Source of the DNA: an uncultured Bacilli bacterium
Lineage (GTDB): Bacteria > Bacillota_I > Bacilli_A > RFN20 > CAG-288
Assembly (NCBI GenBank): GCA_944349335.1
Contig: CALVMW010000001.1
Location: 493,965-557,964 of the forward strand
Length of the DNA stretch: 64,000 nt
Reading direction: 5' to 3'
Under the pieces are notes generated by a model. The model did no database searches. It was given only the letters and a program-made list of their open reading frames with translations, and had not been told where the DNA came from. Positions within the stretch are counted from its first letter, which is position 1; each line of letters starts with the position of its first letter. The position numbers and the translations under genes are program-made. This document shows positions 9,672 through 14,287 of this stretch, in pieces.

Positions 9672-10700
9672 ATGAAAAAGGCAGTAACTAAGTTAGTATT
9701 CTTCTTTAAATACCTCTTATCTTGTTTTCTTCCTTTACTAAAAGGTTTTTTAGTTGGCCTTTTTTCTAGTTTACCTTTTATTAATAGTCACGATGTTTCT
9801 CACCTTGTCGCTTTAAAAGAGGAAGAAGAAAACGAAGGAAGTATCTTTAAAAACTTTTTAACTCATTTAAAAAATACTTGGCCTATCTTATTAGGTGGTT
9901 TACTTGGTATTATCTTCTTTTTCCTAATTTCCGTTGAATATTTATATACTAGTTATGGTTTTGCAATCTCTTCTTCCTTAGCTTGTTTATCCCTTATTTT
10001 TCTTATATCTGAAATTTATTCTTTATATTGTTCAGTAAAAAAAGATAAAAATATTAAATCTTATTTATTCGCTTTAGTTTCTGCTCTTTTAACTTTAATA
10101 GTTCTCCTTATCTTTTATTTTATACCTTCATACTCTGCTATCAAAGTTTTCTTCATTTCATTCATCGCTAGTTTCTCCTTATTCTTCTCTGGCATAAGTT
10201 TTGGCTCATTATTCTTGGTTAGCTCTTCTTATATTGCTTTATCAACAAGGATGAACGACGCCTGTTATTTAATAATTAATTCTAATAATATGAGCACAAT
10301 TATCACTCTTTTATTAGGTTTAATATTTGGTTTTATTGCTAGTTACATCTTAACAAATAAATTTAAAAATTTAACTAAAGAGAAAAACTCAAGTAACATC
10401 GTCTACTTCTTATTTGGCTTTATTATAAATATGATTGATACAATAAATACACCTCTTTACACTAACATAAATACTTCTGAACTAGCTCAATTATTCGTTA
10501 TATTAACGATGATTCTTGCAAGCATTGGTATCGGCATCGGTTTAACATTCCACAAATATAAGAAAGTTACAATAACTGCGGAAGAAAATAAAAATGAAAT
10601 AAAAAAAGAAGAGAAGAAAGAAAATGTTTCTTTTGAATCCTCCTCTGGAATCGATATAAGTAAGCTTAAGGAGATAAAAAATATAGACGATGAGGCTTGA
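9672..10700 (+). CDS. divergent DUF368-like membrane protein
   Basis: LLKGFLVGLFSSLPFINSHD and FSGISFGSLFLV resemble the two DUF368 PGxSG repeats but are degenerate. Confidence 0.55.
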   Translation: MKKAVTKLVFFFKYLLSCFLPLLKGFLVGLFSSLPFINSHDVSHLVALKEEEENEGSIFKNFLTHLKNTWPILLGGLLGIIFFFLISVEYLYTSYGFAISSSLACLSLIFLISEIYSLYCSVKKDKNIKSYLFALVSALLTLIVLLIFYFIPSYSAIKVFFISFIASFSLFFSGISFGSLFLVSSSYIALSTRMNDACYLIINSNNMSTIITLLLGLIFGFIASYILTNKFKNLTKEKNSSNIVYFLFGFIINMIDTINTPLYTNINTSELAQLFVILTMILASIGIGIGLTFHKYKKVTITAEENKNEIKKEEKKENVSFESSSGIDISKLKEIKNIDDEA

Positions 10701-11409
10701 CCGCTTTCTCTCACAACAAGGATTAGGCACAAGAAAAGGTGTAAAAAAAATAATTAATGCCTGCCGTGTAAAAGTAAATAATAAAATAGTTACTGATAAC
10801 ACTATCTACATATATGGGGATGATATTATAACTGTCGATGATAAACAAATAGAAAATCTCCCCTATATAACAATACTTTTAAATAAACCAGAAGGGTATA
10901 TCTCTTCTTTAATTGATGAAACTTATCCCTCAATTTTAAATCTTATCCCTGATAGATATAAAAAGCGTGTAAAAATTGTTGGCCGTCTAGATGCTGATAC
11001 TACTGGACTTATCTTACTTACTGATAATGGTGTTTTAAATGCTCGTTTAACTAATCCTAATTATCATATTCAAAAAAGATATAAAGTAGTTGTTAATCAT
11101 ATTTTAAAACCATCATTAGTTGATATCTTCTCCTCACCGATCGATATTGGAAGAAATGAAGTAGTTCAGCCTGATAAGCTTGAAATAGTTGATGAATATA
11201 CTGCTTATCTTACTATACATGATGGAAAATATCATGAGGTGAAAAGATTATTTGGAAAATTTTCTTATGATGTAGTATCTTTAGAAAGAGTAAACTTAGC
11301 TACTCTATCTTTAGGCGATTTAAAAAGAGGAGAATGGCGACTCATTCAAGGTGATGAATACATCTCTCTTCTTTCTTCTGTACATCTAAAAAAGGAGGAT
11401 ACTCTATGA
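10690..11409 (+). CDS. rsuA: RsuA-family rRNA pseudouridine synthase
   Basis: S4 domain MRLDRFL; NKPEG; GRLDADTTGL; GKYHEVKR. Confidence 0.85.
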   Translation: MRLDRFLSQQGLGTRKGVKKIINACRVKVNNKIVTDNTIYIYGDDIITVDDKQIENLPYITILLNKPEGYISSLIDETYPSILNLIPDRYKKRVKIVGRLDADTTGLILLTDNGVLNARLTNPNYHIQKRYKVVVNHILKPSLVDIFSSPIDIGRNEVVQPDKLEIVDEYTAYLTIHDGKYHEVKRLFGKFSYDVVSLERVNLATLSLGDLKRGEWRLIQGDEYISLLSSVHLKKEDTL

Positions 11410-11894
11410 TCTGTCCAAAATGTGGAAGCATGAGCATAGAATACTGTGATGATAATGAAAATAAAGGTTATCATTGCATAGATTGTAATAAATTATTTGG
11501 TTTTTTAAGTGATGAAGAATTTAAAACACTATATGAAAAACTTGTTTCCTTAAAAATAATCAGAAAATATGTAGATGGTAAAACATATATTGTTAACTTT
11601 ATACAAGAAGAAAAAAATAAAATAATTATGCAATCAAGTATCAGTTATCCTAATTACTACATCCCTTATTCAGTCATGGATGTTTCCTTGATGGCTTATC
11701 AAATCATGGATATCTTATTTAAAAAAATGTACCTTCTTGACTGGGAAGATGATGAGAAAAAAGAAGATTATTACGAAATTACGATAACTTTTAAAGATAA
11801 AACGATCACAAAGATTGGAAATTCATTAACAACAACATATACTGCTGATTTAGATGAGATGTTCTACGCCTTATTTAAAGAGAAAGAAAAATGA
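11406..11894 (+). CDS. hypothetical protein with N-terminal Zn ribbon
   Basis: CPKC...CIDC; AGGAGG RBS. Confidence 0.75.
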   Translation: MICPKCGSMSIEYCDDNENKGYHCIDCNKLFGFLSDEEFKTLYEKLVSLKIIRKYVDGKTYIVNFIQEEKNKIIMQSSISYPNYYIPYSVMDVSLMAYQIMDILFKKMYLLDWEDDEKKEDYYEITITFKDKTITKIGNSLTTTYTADLDEMFYALFKEKEK

Positions 11895-12241
11895 ACAATA
11901 TCATATCTATCGATTTTTGGAAAAGAAGTCCTCTTTCTGTAGATGAAATATTGAAACTTAAAATTGAAGCTAAAGATCAAATTATTCTTAGTTTAAAAGA
12001 TAAGAAAAAAATATTAACTGCTGAAGAGTATAAAGATATAGTTGATCATCTTATTAAAGATATCGATATTTTTGCAAATGATCGCTGTTTTAATTACGAA
12101 GATAATCCTGAAGATTACAGTATATCTTTCTTTATCAACTTGCACTTTGATAATATGACTTATTTTGCTGTTAAAGGTCAAAAGAATAAAACAAAGAATT
12201 TTGATATACTTCTACATTATTTTGATAAATATTTACAATAA
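11891..12241 (+). CDS. hypothetical protein
   Basis: 116-aa ORF overlapping the previous stop (ATGA). Confidence 0.7.
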   Translation: MNNIISIDFWKRSPLSVDEILKLKIEAKDQIILSLKDKKKILTAEEYKDIVDHLIKDIDIFANDRCFNYEDNPEDYSISFFINLHFDNMTYFAVKGQKNKTKNFDILLHYFDKYLQ

Positions 12242-12680
12242 AAAAGGACCCAATTACCATTCTATCTGCGAAAGATAACTGGGTCCTATCTAGCTGAACT
12301 ATCTGATGAAATTGCCGTAATAATTGTTCCTCCTAATAGTACAAAATTGACGAACCAACACGACTTATTGCTAAGAACAAAATAGCTACAATCGACTCGA
12401 CTAACAACAATCAACTAACAACAAACGAATAACACCTAAACAACACGTAACAACTAAACTTCGTTCAGCTAGCTTCCTTTAAACTATTTATGCCATGGCT
12501 TTCTTCTAAATAGTCTCTTAGCATTTCACATCCTTTGTTTACAAATTCATCAACTAACGATTTTTTGGGCTTTTACCCTGTGAGCTTAACACTCGATTTA
12601 AGTAATTTAGAATAGTGCAAACAAATAATTTAAGAAGATGTAACCTTCCCTATCCGGAAGCAGATAAAGAAGATGCTGTA
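12241..12680 (-). ncRNA. candidate large structured ncRNA of unrecognised family
   Basis: At least 8 nested or serial helices; five contain G-U pairs that form only on the minus strand; ends in a 14-bp stem followed by U5. Confidence 0.6.
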
Positions 12681-12724
12681 GTCTATATCATACAAGTATG
12701 ATATATCGAAATTAGACAATGGTG

Positions 12725-12991
12725 TTAGAAGCTGTACTCATTGCAGAGCTTTTCGAATCCAGCTTTAGCTGAATCCTCATCTTCGCCAGAAAAAGTAATA
12801 GTCAAGACTGCTCCGCGTGAAATTGGAGCTAAAGCAAAAACATTCATGATCGACTTGAGATCACATTCATCACCATTCTCTAGTTTCAGACGAATATCGC
12901 ACTTGTGATGATTAGCTTCTTCGACTAATTCAGCGCTAGAGCGAGAAGTTAATCCGCCCATATCGTTGATTTTAATTGTGTAGCTTGTCAT
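12725..12991 (-). CDS. HPr-family protein lacking His15 (Crh-like)
   Basis: HPr fold and length; GLTSRSS replaces GLHARPA; Ser46 motif KSIMNV retained. Confidence 0.85.
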   Translation of the reverse strand: MTSYTIKINDMGGLTSRSSAELVEEANHHKCDIRLKLENGDECDLKSIMNVFALAPISRGAVLTITFSGEDEDSAKAGFEKLCNEYSF

Positions 12992-13007
12992 ATTTCTTAG
13001 CACCCTT

Positions 13008-13036
13008 ATTATAATCGATTGTGGAAGCGATTACAA
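13008..13036 (-). promoter_or_regulatory. sigma-A promoter of the HPr-like gene with an overlapping cre-like site
   Basis: TTGTAA-17nt-TATAAT on the minus strand; TGGAAGCGATTACA (13022-13035) fits the CcpA cre consensus. Confidence 0.65.
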
Positions 13037-13106
13037 GTAATATTTGCAATCTTTATAATATCTCTAAAATAAAAAATCCTGGTTGTACCAGGAATAATTT
13101 TCAAGA

Positions 13107-13183
13107 TGGTGGGTCTTAGTAGGCTTGAACTACCGACCTTGCGCTTATCAAGCGCACGCTCTAACCAACTGAGCTAAAGACCC
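13107..13183 (-). tRNA. tRNA-Ile(GAU)
   Basis: GGGTCTTTAGCTCAGTTGG...TGCGC-TTGATAA-GCGCA...GTTCAAG...ACCCACCA cloverleaf. Confidence 0.97.
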
Positions 13184-13343
13184 GTTTAAGCGAAAATAAT
13201 TTTATCGCATACTGATGATAATGTCAATAATAATAAATATTTTTTTATAAATCTATCTTACTACAATTATTTGAGGTCTTTTTTCTATCCTTGATAAATA
13301 CATATTAAAATAATAAAATAAAAAGGACTCGGAGGTCAAAAAT

Positions 13344-13535
13344 ATGGCAAAAAAAGTTAGAATCGATGAAGAAGCTTGCATCGGTTGCGGTGCTTGCACA
13401 GGTATCTGCCCTGACATCTTCGCTATCAACGATGCTGGTAAGGCTGCTGTAGTTGCTGAACCTACAGATGCTGATGACGCTTCTGTTGATGAAGCTGTCG
13501 CTAGCTGCCCTGTCTCAGCTATCTCTGCTGAATAA
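13344..13535 (+). CDS. single-cluster 4Fe-4S ferredoxin
   Basis: CIGCGACTGICP...CPVSAI; GGAGG RBS. Confidence 0.93.
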   Translation: MAKKVRIDEEACIGCGACTGICPDIFAINDAGKAAVVAEPTDADDASVDEAVASCPVSAISAE

Positions 13536-13540
13536 GCTAT

Positions 13541-13565
13541 AAGCTGCTACTTAGCAGCTTTTTTT
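13541..13565 (+). terminator. intrinsic terminator after ferredoxin
   Basis: AAGCTGCTA-CT-TAGCAGCTT followed by a T-run. Confidence 0.75.
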
Positions 13566-14287
13566 GTGCACAATTTACTTAAACTAAGTATTTCTTCTTT
13601 TGTTAATTCTTTAAATTCGCCAGGTTTTAAATCTTCTAAAAAGATATTTCCGATCCTTACTCTTTTTAAATTGATCACTTCATGATGTAATGTCTCCATC
13701 ATGCGACGAACTTCTCTTTTCTTTCCTTCATGAATAATAATAGAAAAAGTTAAACTATCCCGATGCTTTTCTAGTAACTTTGCTTTAGCAGGATAAGCTT
13801 TATATGCATACTTAGCTATATACAAACCTTTAGCTAATTTTTCAATCTCGTCACCTTTATATTCTCCTAAACAAGTTACAATATACTCTTTTTCTGGAGA
13901 TGTAGAAGGATGCATAATTAAGTTAGAAAAATTACCATCATCAGTTAGTAAAATCAAACCTTCAGAATCATAATCTAATCTTCCTATTGGAAAAAGGCGA
14001 CCATAACTTAGAGGAATTAAATCTATAATAGTCTTTCTTCCTTGCGGATCATCGCAAGTAGTAATATAGCCACGAGGTTTATAAACTTTTAAATAATGAT
14101 GATCCTTTCTTATTTGAAGCACTTTACCATCAATAGCAACAACATCATCCACTGAACAAGTCGAACCTAATTTATCGATTAAAATACCATTTACTGTTAC
14201 TTTTTTGTTAACAATATATTCCTCGGCTTTTCTTCTTGAGCAAAAGCCACTATCTGCAATAAATTTCTGTAATCTTACTTTTTCCAT
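13547..14287 (-). CDS. rluB: RluB-like 23S rRNA pseudouridine synthase
   Basis: VRLQKFIADSGFCSRRKAE, GRLDYDSEGL and EGKKREVRRM motifs. Confidence 0.85.
   Translation of the reverse strand: MEKVRLQKFIADSGFCSRRKAEEYIVNKKVTVNGILIDKLGSTCSVDDVVAIDGKVLQIRKDHHYLKVYKPRGYITTCDDPQGRKTIIDLIPLSYGRLFPIGRLDYDSEGLILLTDDGNFSNLIMHPSTSPEKEYIVTCLGEYKGDEIEKLAKGLYIAKYAYKAYPAKAKLLEKHRDSLTFSIIIHEGKKREVRRMMETLHHEVINLKRVRIGNIFLEDLKPGEFKELTKEEILSLSKLCTKKAAK

Follow-up and report, generated by a model that had tools for sequence, protein, structure and literature searches.

The window analysed here is a 64,000-nucleotide (nt) stretch of DNA from an uncultured Bacilli bacterium of the genus CAG-288, whose source genome is 1.23 Mb long, has a G+C content of 31.6% and is 91% complete. 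On its minus strand lies a gene for an HPr-family protein (12725-12991), the only gene of that family in the genome, and between this gene and the end of a convergent three-gene unit on the plus strand (10690-12241) lies the subject of this report, an RNA at 12240-12724 that appears to be the 3' trailer of the HPr messenger RNA (mRNA). It contains no open reading frame (ORF) of at least 60 aa under genetic codes 11 and 4 and no stop-to-stop ORF longer than 79 aa under code 4; a 42-aa ORF at 12286-12414 has no Pfam match. The locus comprises the following features, listed in the direction of transcription.

13008..13036, minus strand: promoter-like site TTGTAA-17-TATAAT ahead of the HPr gene, found by a promoter-site scan
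12725..12991, minus strand: HPr-family gene, 88 aa from ATG (PF00381, E 7e-15)
12240..12724, minus strand: whole trailer RNA, 485 nt, from the first base after the HPr stop to the last base of the terminator U-run
12684..12705, minus strand: 5' hairpin, stem UAUAUCAUA/UAUGAUAUA, 10+10 perfect
12520..12677, minus strand: species-specific multi-helix domain (helices H1-H6), with pair probabilities of 0.87-0.98 for H3-H6 and a fold z of -3.93
12481..12516, minus strand: hairpin H7, 10-bp stem and 16-nt loop displaying AAAGCCAUGGCA, pair probability 0.91
12463..12472, minus strand: 5' arm of helix H8, CUAGCUGAAC, 10/10 complementary to its partner at 12290-12299
12380..12459, minus strand: G/U-rich, C-poor repeat block (GUUGUUA, GUUGAUU, GUCGAG, GUCGAU; period ~7 nt)
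12329..12334, minus strand: Shine-Dalgarno-like AGGAGG, ~40 nt ahead of the terminator stem
12290..12299, minus strand: 3' arm of H8, GUUCAGCUAG, identified by its complementarity to 12463-12472
12240..12287, minus strand: intrinsic terminator, 14-bp outer stem GACCCAGUUA... / ...UAAUUGGGUC, inner hairpin and U6, pair probability 0.99

By their labels, the sequencing runs that contain the stretch are chicken gut, bird, feces and gut metagenomes. Contigs of one DNA run and of three RNA libraries, each from a different study, were mapped on 11400-13600. Those of the RNA libraries span 12266-12990 (word depth 36), 12348-12991 (word depth 32) and 12615-12976 (word depth 25), and they pass unbroken from the HPr coding region into the trailer, bridging the stop codon at 12725; being contigs, they do not show strand, transcript ends, processing or single-molecule continuity. 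Within the trailer, the RNA runs leave gaps at 12240-12265 (X17), at 12240-12347 (X16) and everywhere below 12615 (X20). None of the RNA libraries covers 11400-12213 (the convergent genes) or 13250-13600 (the genes beyond the tRNA), whereas the DNA run covers all of 11400-13600 at about 3-5. Because the RNA contigs skip the flanking genes while the DNA run covers everything, DNA carry-over is unlikely. The promoter-site scan found no minus-strand promoter-like site between the HPr stop and the terminator. Thus, with contigs that join the trailer to HPr and no internal promoter-like site on that strand, we regard this RNA as the 3' trailer of the HPr mRNA. The promoter-like site at 13008-13036 is the likely start of the HPr-plus-trailer transcript, and the RNA contigs of two studies end at 12990 and 12991, a weak hint of a nearby 5' end. 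An earlier note, made from the sequence alone, had proposed a novel large noncoding RNA on the minus strand at 12241-12680. Transcription of the region is borne out by the contigs of three studies, with the flanking genes uncovered, and the analysis also supports an RNA on the minus strand; the form seen, however, is the tail of the HPr message. The proposed extent had its upper end too low, since the perfect 10+10 hairpin at 12684-12705 also belongs to the RNA, which starts at the HPr stop (12724) and runs to the terminator U-run at 12240-12245.

The predicted fold is specific to the minus strand. The whole region, taken as 489 nt, folds to -124.2 kcal/mol (z -3.67, 0/100 shuffles as good), against -73.8 kcal/mol on the plus strand (z -0.19, 40/100 shuffles as good). 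The earlier note had argued that the irregular pairs are G-U on one strand and would be A-C on the other, and with minus- and plus-strand z values of -3.67 and -0.19 this asymmetry holds; its expectation that the region folds better than shuffled sequence proved correct as well. Perfect inverted repeats of at least 10 bp occur twice; 500 dinucleotide shuffles average 0.134, and only 1.0% of them reach two. All nine helices that had been named are complementary at their coordinates: H1 (5/5 pairs), H2 (5/5), H3 (9/9, two G-U), H4 (10/10, one G-U), H5 (4/4, one G-U), H6 (4/4, one G-U), H7 (10/10, one G-U), H8 (10/10) and the terminator (14/14, two G-U). In the full-length ensemble, the mean pair probability is 0.87-0.99 for H3, H4, H5, H6, H7 and the terminator, all of which appear in the minimum free energy (MFE) structure; H1, H2 and H8 are minor alternatives there (0.03, 0.00 and 0.04), and a longer hairpin takes the place of H2. 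When 12517-12680 of the minus strand is folded alone (-43.1 kcal/mol, z -3.93, 0/200 shuffles as good), the nested 5' domain, including H1, forms exactly as it had been drawn. The long-range 10-bp helix H8 fared less well: the ensemble does not favour it, and forcing it costs 3 kcal/mol (-121.2 vs -124.2).

Four strains of the trailer differ by eight substitutions and two single-base indels; in the HPr coding region there are two substitutions. When the trailer substitutions are placed on the MFE structure, five of the eight are unpaired, two turn a U-G pair into C-G, and one breaks a long-range MFE pair. The pair-strengthening changes are at 12591, in H5, and at 12301, in an end-to-end helix that joins 12714-12720 with 12298-12304. 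The disruptive one, at 12680, affects a pair absent from the helices of the earlier note. Variants 12579, 12580 and 12561 lie in linkers of the multi-helix domain, one indel lies in an A-run and the other in a linker, and no strain variant is listed inside the G/U block (12380-12459). The strain variants agree with the helices but are too few to serve as proof.

A comparable RNA is found across the genus. Of 42 loci that could be evaluated, 39 have an ORF-poor RNA of ~170-820 nt in the interval from the His-less HPr gene to the same convergent gene, and its 5' element was likewise recognised in 39 of the 42. In L051-L053 (our numbering of related loci), the most distant three of the HPr loci, a terminator follows directly after the stop codon and the trailer RNA is absent. 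The RNA cannot be aligned across the genus by BLAST, and its interior turns over rapidly between species; its length and ends are kept, and several blocks are common to its members. One of these is a 5' hairpin with a nearly invariant loop, UUGGCCA, and a stem that is 86% paired, with UA/UG/CG exchange at one pair. The stem is wholly different (CUUCCA/UGGAA) in L048 and L049, and the same replacement stem is seen in the printed sequences of L047 and L050. A covariance model of this hairpin, R1, matched 22 of 26 other genomes of the genus, once in each and always beside HPr, and none of 124 genomes that represent 46 further genera in the order. At the other end stands a two-tier terminator with the outer stem GRCCYAG.../...CURGGYC, the inner hairpin AAUU-GUUG-AAUU and a U-run. 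Counted over the relatives, with the window left out, it is 93.3% paired, and 10 of its 15 pairs change on both sides; its covariation score is 0.401, against 0.213 +/- 0.017 in shuffles (0/500 as high) and at most 0.133 in slid controls. In many relatives it lies between an A-run and a U-run and thus looks bidirectional. Between the ends, five relatives (L012, L013, L015, L043 and L044) have a hairpin with GCCAUGGCA in its loop and closing stems that differ (GCAGCCUC/GAGAGCUGC, GGCAGUC/GACUGCC and GACAGUC/GACUGUC), a comparison read off printed sequences and folds without a formal pair count. We class it as a new family of RNA, confined to one genus; its general kind, borne on a 3' untranslated region (3' UTR), is already known.

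Degenerate G-R-K-A-H pentamers also form arrays in relatives, with as many as 58 units in a single RNA. The autocorrelation of G at lag 5 is positive in 29 of 29 relatives (0.05-0.35), and hexamers that fit the pattern are strongly enriched in their RNAs: GAGACG was observed 57 times (expected 3.2), GAUACG 43 times (expected 3.5) and GGGAAG 43 times (expected 4.4). Periodic units number 650, against 137 in shuffles, and the best-kept positions are G1 and A4. A four-unit pattern gave 48 matches in 45 genomes, against two for the reversed control, and 36 of the 48 fall inside trailers. The arrays resemble binding sites for a multimeric RNA-binding protein. Runs of four to eight pentamers also occur on the sense strand upstream of genes (L125 ~2000-2030 and L143, reverse strand, ~1572-1610; L144 ~1497-1517; L123 ~2025-2060). 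In two close species such an array stands between the genes for a sugar ATP-binding cassette (ABC) permease and a lipoprotein (binding protein); of the others, one stands before an unknown gene and one before the gene for phosphoenolpyruvate (PEP) carboxykinase, the latter in a single species.

Two further observations concern the architecture of the relatives' RNAs. Near the 5' end relatives carry a conserved CCCUUUCU (for example L012, at ~105-135 with its counterpart at ~735-745, and L043, L044, L016, L020 and L037), and a conserved AGAAGGGAG, which is complementary to it over 6-7 pairs, lies ~60-100 nt before the terminator, behind a small covarying hairpin; the pairing of CCCUUUCU with AGAAGGGAG might close the RNA end to end. 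Displayed loops are self-complementary, namely UGGCCA, UGCGCA (L055) and GAUC (L019) in the 5' hairpin and GCCAUGGC in the central hairpin, and this would allow loop-loop pairing within or between molecules.

The copy in the window occupies the family's position, on the HPr strand between the His-less HPr gene and the convergent small-protein operon, and it has kept the 5' hairpin stem, the GCCAUGGCA hairpin, the outer terminator stem and AGGAGG. Its 5' hairpin stem is identical to the family stem (UAUAUCA/UGAUAUA, then G), a pattern that occurs once in the 1.23-Mb genome, and its loop is CUUG in place of UUGGCCA. The 12684-12705 hairpin is the best R1 match within the window (model positions 8-31, 12.4 bits, E 0.21). 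The GCCAUGGCA hairpin, H7, has a 13-nt exact match to L015 and matches of 9-11 nt to L012, L013, L017, L043 and L044; it shows (A)AGCCAUGGCA next to the 3' arm, as does a subset of members, and its closing stem (AGACUAUUUA/UAAAUAGUUU) differs while the loop motif is kept. The outer terminator stem GACCCAGUUA is identical in L016, and together with the U-run it matches the family pattern; the terminator 10-mer GACCCAGTTA, present at a single place in the genome, is likewise identical in L016. The inner hairpin is AUCU-UUCGC-AGAU, against AAUU-GUUG-AAUU in the family. The 5' arm of H8 contains a motif, CUAGCUGA, that recurs in the relatives' RNAs, and CTAGCTGA is present in L018, L030, L034, L037 and L045. 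Either AGGAGG or AGAAGGGAG stands at a similar place in relatives, with AGAAGGGAG in L012, L013, L015, L016, L020, L037, L043 and L044; around AGGAGG, the window shares AGGAGGAACA with L044 and AGGAGGAA with L029 and L035. Inspection of the sequence after AGGAGG found no AUG, GUG or UUG at a usable distance.

The interior, too, shares more short words with the relatives' RNAs than expected. The window interior and the relatives have 111 8-mers in common, against 76 +/- 9.9 in shuffles and 72 for the reverse complement, and 19 10-mers, against 6.8 +/- 3.6 in shuffles (1/300 of which reached 29) and 5 for the reverse complement. Where relatives have pentamer arrays, the window has its G/U block, the sole 80-nt segment on either strand of the genome with at least 80% G+T and at least 25% G. 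The block contains two direct repeats, D1 and D2, with a spacing of 14, and in the window's trailer the autocorrelation of G is 0.14 at lag 7 and 0.00 at lag 5. A search of the genome for copies of this block, or for targets complementary to it, returned only chance matches of 11-13 nt. Direct homology searches were likewise empty: the 489 nt, searched as DNA against 40 relatives, matched nothing but the window's own genome, sensitive blastn against 29 downstream regions gave nothing below E 0.06, and a single-sequence covariance model of the 5' domain (R2), run on 48 related loci (158,065 bases), reached E 0.064 at best, and that away from the corresponding position. Metagenome contigs, searched for nearer relatives, yielded an HPr of 77% identity as the closest. 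The conservation expected by the earlier note is therefore found for the family RNA, at the same place throughout the genus, and not for the multi-helix 5' domain, which is private to this species. With the stem, the GCCAUGGCA hairpin and the outer terminator kept and the loop and arrays lost, the window copy is a true but strongly remodelled member of the family, and the helices of the earlier note are mostly its own. As a whole that note is partly upheld: it described an RNA on the minus strand that is transcribed and matches no known family, and needs changing as to its form, seen here as an mRNA tail, as to H8, and as to the 5' domain, which is specific to this species.

We consider it reasonably probable that the 485-nt 3' trailer of the HPr mRNA is a remodelled form of the genus RNA and, on the leading reading, would be a decoy or scaffold that acts in trans and is coupled to HPr expression. 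Transcription would start at the HPr promoter, pass the HPr stop and the 5' hairpin and end at the two-tier intrinsic terminator. The pentamer arrays of relatives would have been exchanged in the window for a private 160-nt multi-helix domain and the G/U-rich repeat block; the displayed loops and the single-stranded, C-poor repeats would bind an RNA-binding factor, and the amount of decoy would track HPr transcription. The action in trans as decoy or scaffold, by the whole trailer or by a piece cut from the mRNA, we put forward only tentatively. The data establish the sequence features, the strand-specific fold, the continuity of transcription with HPr, the membership in the family and its confinement to the genus; processing, binding and a role in carbon control are presumptive parts of this model. 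A wider scheme, in which the HPr-trailer RNA, with 10-58 sites of strict 5-nt period, exerts genus-wide post-transcriptional control by titrating a ring-like or multimeric protein that also binds the runs before sugar-uptake and gluconeogenic genes, seems doubtful to us; if true, it would be a Firmicute counterpart of CsrB/CrcZ with a new motif and a new protein, and the window species would be a natural variant.

Several results weigh against the decoy reading. The conserved UUGGCCA loop is lost in the window, which accounts for the low R1 score of 12.4 bits (E 0.21); R1 scores 14.6-20 bits at five other places in the genome, the own-genome search did not list the window hairpin, and no match there reached E <=0.001. 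The genome has no four-unit pentamer array, and its two three-unit matches are both in coding sequence. The multi-helix domain has no detectable counterpart in the 48 related loci and is hence beyond a covariation test, and 10 variants in the 485 nt of trailer, against two in the 267 nt of coding sequence, are compatible with weak constraint. Among the relatives, nine whole-RNA folds gave mixed z values without strand asymmetry (-0.7 to -4.1 vs -0.3 to -4.2; 12 shuffles each). Ten four-unit places lie outside trailers, four of them upstream of genes, one unclear and five in or antisense to ORFs, and only two of the four gene-upstream arrays are orthologous. Finally, the known candidates for a partner are missing: TRAP (PF02081) and CsrA (PF02599) were absent from 45 of 45 genus genomes, with the controls found in B. 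subtilis for TRAP and in E. coli, B. subtilis and T. maritima for CsrA. Both were accordingly dropped as candidate partners. PEP carboxykinase was also tried as a conserved member of a regulon; the upstream array is present in one of 21 orthologous loci, so this member is not conserved.

For the window copy there are two serious rivals, a cis-acting trailer and a relic. In the first case the trailer, a long 3' UTR with structure, would have no target in trans: it would determine how stable the HPr mRNA is or how its 3' end is processed, keeping 3' exonucleases out and shielding the message from the convergent operon. That the RNA contigs run on from the HPr coding region into the trailer without a change in word depth would fit such a role, as would the strong terminator, bidirectional-looking in many relatives, the fast turnover of an interior whose length and ends are kept, and a window copy that works without pentamer arrays. 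However, a bare terminator suffices in L051-L053, so that HPr expression as such can do without the 170-820 extra bases; moreover, the conserved UUGGCCA and GCCAUGGCA loops and the periodic arrays exceed the needs of a stability element. We regard a purely cis-acting role as possible but on balance unlikely. Less probable still is that the ancestral RNA lost its function in this reduced lineage and that the window holds a drifting spacer with chance helices. The loss of the UUGGCCA loop, of all pentamer arrays and of the inner terminator hairpin would be expected of such decay, as would the variant density noted above, and two array-bearing genes of relatives have no homologue in this genome by tblastn. 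Against decay speak a fold that is strand-specific and well above shuffles, the two perfect 10-bp inverted repeats where 0.134 are expected, the strengthening of the pair by two of the three variants at paired sites, a G/U block that is unique in the genome and invariant among the strains compared, and the retention of a 485-nt spacer in a compact genome.

An RNA with its own promoter is very improbable. On this account TG-N-TATAGT, as the 3' arm of the 5' hairpin reads in relatives, would serve as an extended -10 element and the palindrome around it as an operator, and a free-standing small RNA (sRNA) would start at about GUCGAG. Most relatives indeed read TGATATAGT or TGGTATAGT here, the stem is conserved in sequence more than it covaries, and a 12-nt TGATATAGTCGA, following TG, lies 25-35 nt ahead of the PEP carboxykinase start in L160, L161, L162 and L164; because the same 12 nt precede that gene, the hairpin arm may double as an extended -10 promoter. 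In the window, however, the box reads TATAGA, the scan called no promoter-like site on the minus strand at this point, and the RNA contigs continue through the hairpin unbroken; furthermore, in L048 and L049 (and, by their printed sequences, in L047 and L050) the hairpin and its loop persist on a different stem, CUUCCA/UGGAA, that does not resemble a promoter, and U-A to C-G exchanges occur in 4 of 33 rows. As a separate observation, TGATATAGTCGA also forms the 3' arm and tail of the family 5' hairpin, which points either to a promoter function of the arm or to a binding site common to the two places.

It is hardly credible that the RNA is a divergent member of a described large class (an OLE variant of the RF39 type, ROOL, GOLLD, raiA, 6S, RNase P or tmRNA). 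Two points lend it some appeal: a 6S RNA (RF00013) was found nowhere in the genome, where RNase P RNA and tmRNA were found normally, so that the 6S role has no holder; and an OLE "variant 2" without P7-P8 is reported to be common in RF39 gut organisms (PMC11332333). Against it, only four tRNAs reach the gathering score when Rfam 15 is run on the whole window, and nothing reaches threshold in 12 related loci. In E-value mode, 12100-12800 gave four matches up to E 10 (E 0.54-6.7, 15-20 bits, with gathering scores of 45-91), none of them to these families. OLE (RF01071) gave no match at E up to 1 in the genome, a weak test because none of the 14 control genomes contains OLE. RNase P RNA and tmRNA are located elsewhere, on contig 3 (G000:C3:20525-20848 and C3:52997-53384), and ARAGORN found nothing but the upstream tRNA-Ile. 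The earlier note's view of the RNA as novel is supported insofar as it matches no curated family, and a limited literature search found no description of a comparable RNA 3' of ptsH/HPr.

In the window's HPr protein Thr replaces His-15 and the Ser-46 motif, LKSIM, is kept. HPr is present in 43 of 45 genus genomes, at 56-82% identity, and all 43 copies have GLTSRS, with Thr at the His-15 place, and DLKSI, the Ser-46 motif. To judge by these residues, the window HPr is a purely regulatory form. A gene for HPr kinase (HprK) lies at C1:719359-719862, and the N-terminal domain of Enzyme I was not found in the genome (91% complete), which suggests an organism that has no phosphotransferase system (PTS) but retains HPr-Ser signalling. 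A role of the trailer in carbon-catabolite control would follow solely from its co-transcription with the cell's single HPr. An alternative upstream GTG at 13003 would give a 92-aa HPr.

Ahead of the HPr gene, ARAGORN placed a tRNA-Ile(GAU) with its own terminator. Two genes for S4-domain pseudouridine synthases (PF00849 + PF01479) flank the locus on opposite strands, at 10690-11409 (plus) and 13547-14287 (minus). The former is followed at 11406-12241 (plus) by overlapping small ORFs of 162 aa, with two N-terminal CxxC pairs, and 116 aa, neither with a Pfam match, which converge on the trailer. The C-terminus of the 116-aa ORF is recognisable at the same place in relatives, whether the RNA is present or not.

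Gut metatranscriptomes contain the trailer as part of the mRNA for a protein central to carbon signalling, in a gut lineage with a reduced genome and apparently no PTS. Most species of the genus carry in it an unusually regular array of short sites that the known RNA-binding proteins of these genomes leave unexplained. Should the array bind a protein, a new regulator awaits discovery; should the RNA work purely in cis, it is striking that a trailer of 0.2-0.8 kb has been kept across a genus of compact genomes despite near-complete turnover of its sequence. The window copy illustrates how thoroughly such an RNA can be remade with only its ends and a single internal hairpin retained. To our knowledge, few large bacterial RNAs are known beyond the classical set, and every one found so far has led to new research.

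Among known systems, CsrB/RsmZ and CrcZ are protein-sponge RNAs, CrcZ belonging to catabolite control; TRAP sites in Bacillus trp leaders consist of 9-11 (G/U)AG units; and RsaC is released from the 3' end of the mntABC transcript. RsaC and the sponge RNAs come closest to the trailer; none of them resembles it in sequence. Like the sponge RNAs, the trailers of relatives string many degenerate purine-rich sites on one RNA (GGGAAG, GGGAUG, GGGACG, GAGACG), and a few similar runs stand ahead of carbon-metabolism genes. In contrast to CsrB/RsmZ, these sites are strictly 5-nt periodic and not set in separate hairpin loops, the genus has no CsrA (absent from 45/45 genomes), and the window copy has no pentamer site array at all. 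The triplet-like units every 5 nt on single-stranded RNA recall TRAP sites and have the register expected for a ring of identical subunits; however, PF02081 is absent from 45/45 genomes, relatives keep G1 and A4 rather than an adjacent A-G, and the units number up to 58 instead of 9-11. OLE variant 2 of RF39 is, like the trailer, a large structured RNA of uncultured, genome-reduced gut Bacillota (PMC11332333). There is no RF01071 match here, and the trailer RNA is poorly conserved in sequence between species, whereas OLE variants are described as having many highly conserved nucleotides (PMC11332333). RsaC of Staphylococcus aureus shows no sequence or Rfam relation to the trailer, and its host gene is a manganese transporter rather than HPr; the repeats here are 5-nt G-R-K-A-H units in relatives or G/U heptamers in the window, and the RNA is known here as a joined mRNA tail. 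Yet RsaC is reported to be a long sRNA whose length varies through internal repeats beside a more conserved structured part (PMC6765141), and the HPr trailer, made as the tail of an mRNA, likewise combines length variation driven by repeats with a conserved structured part in a long RNA.

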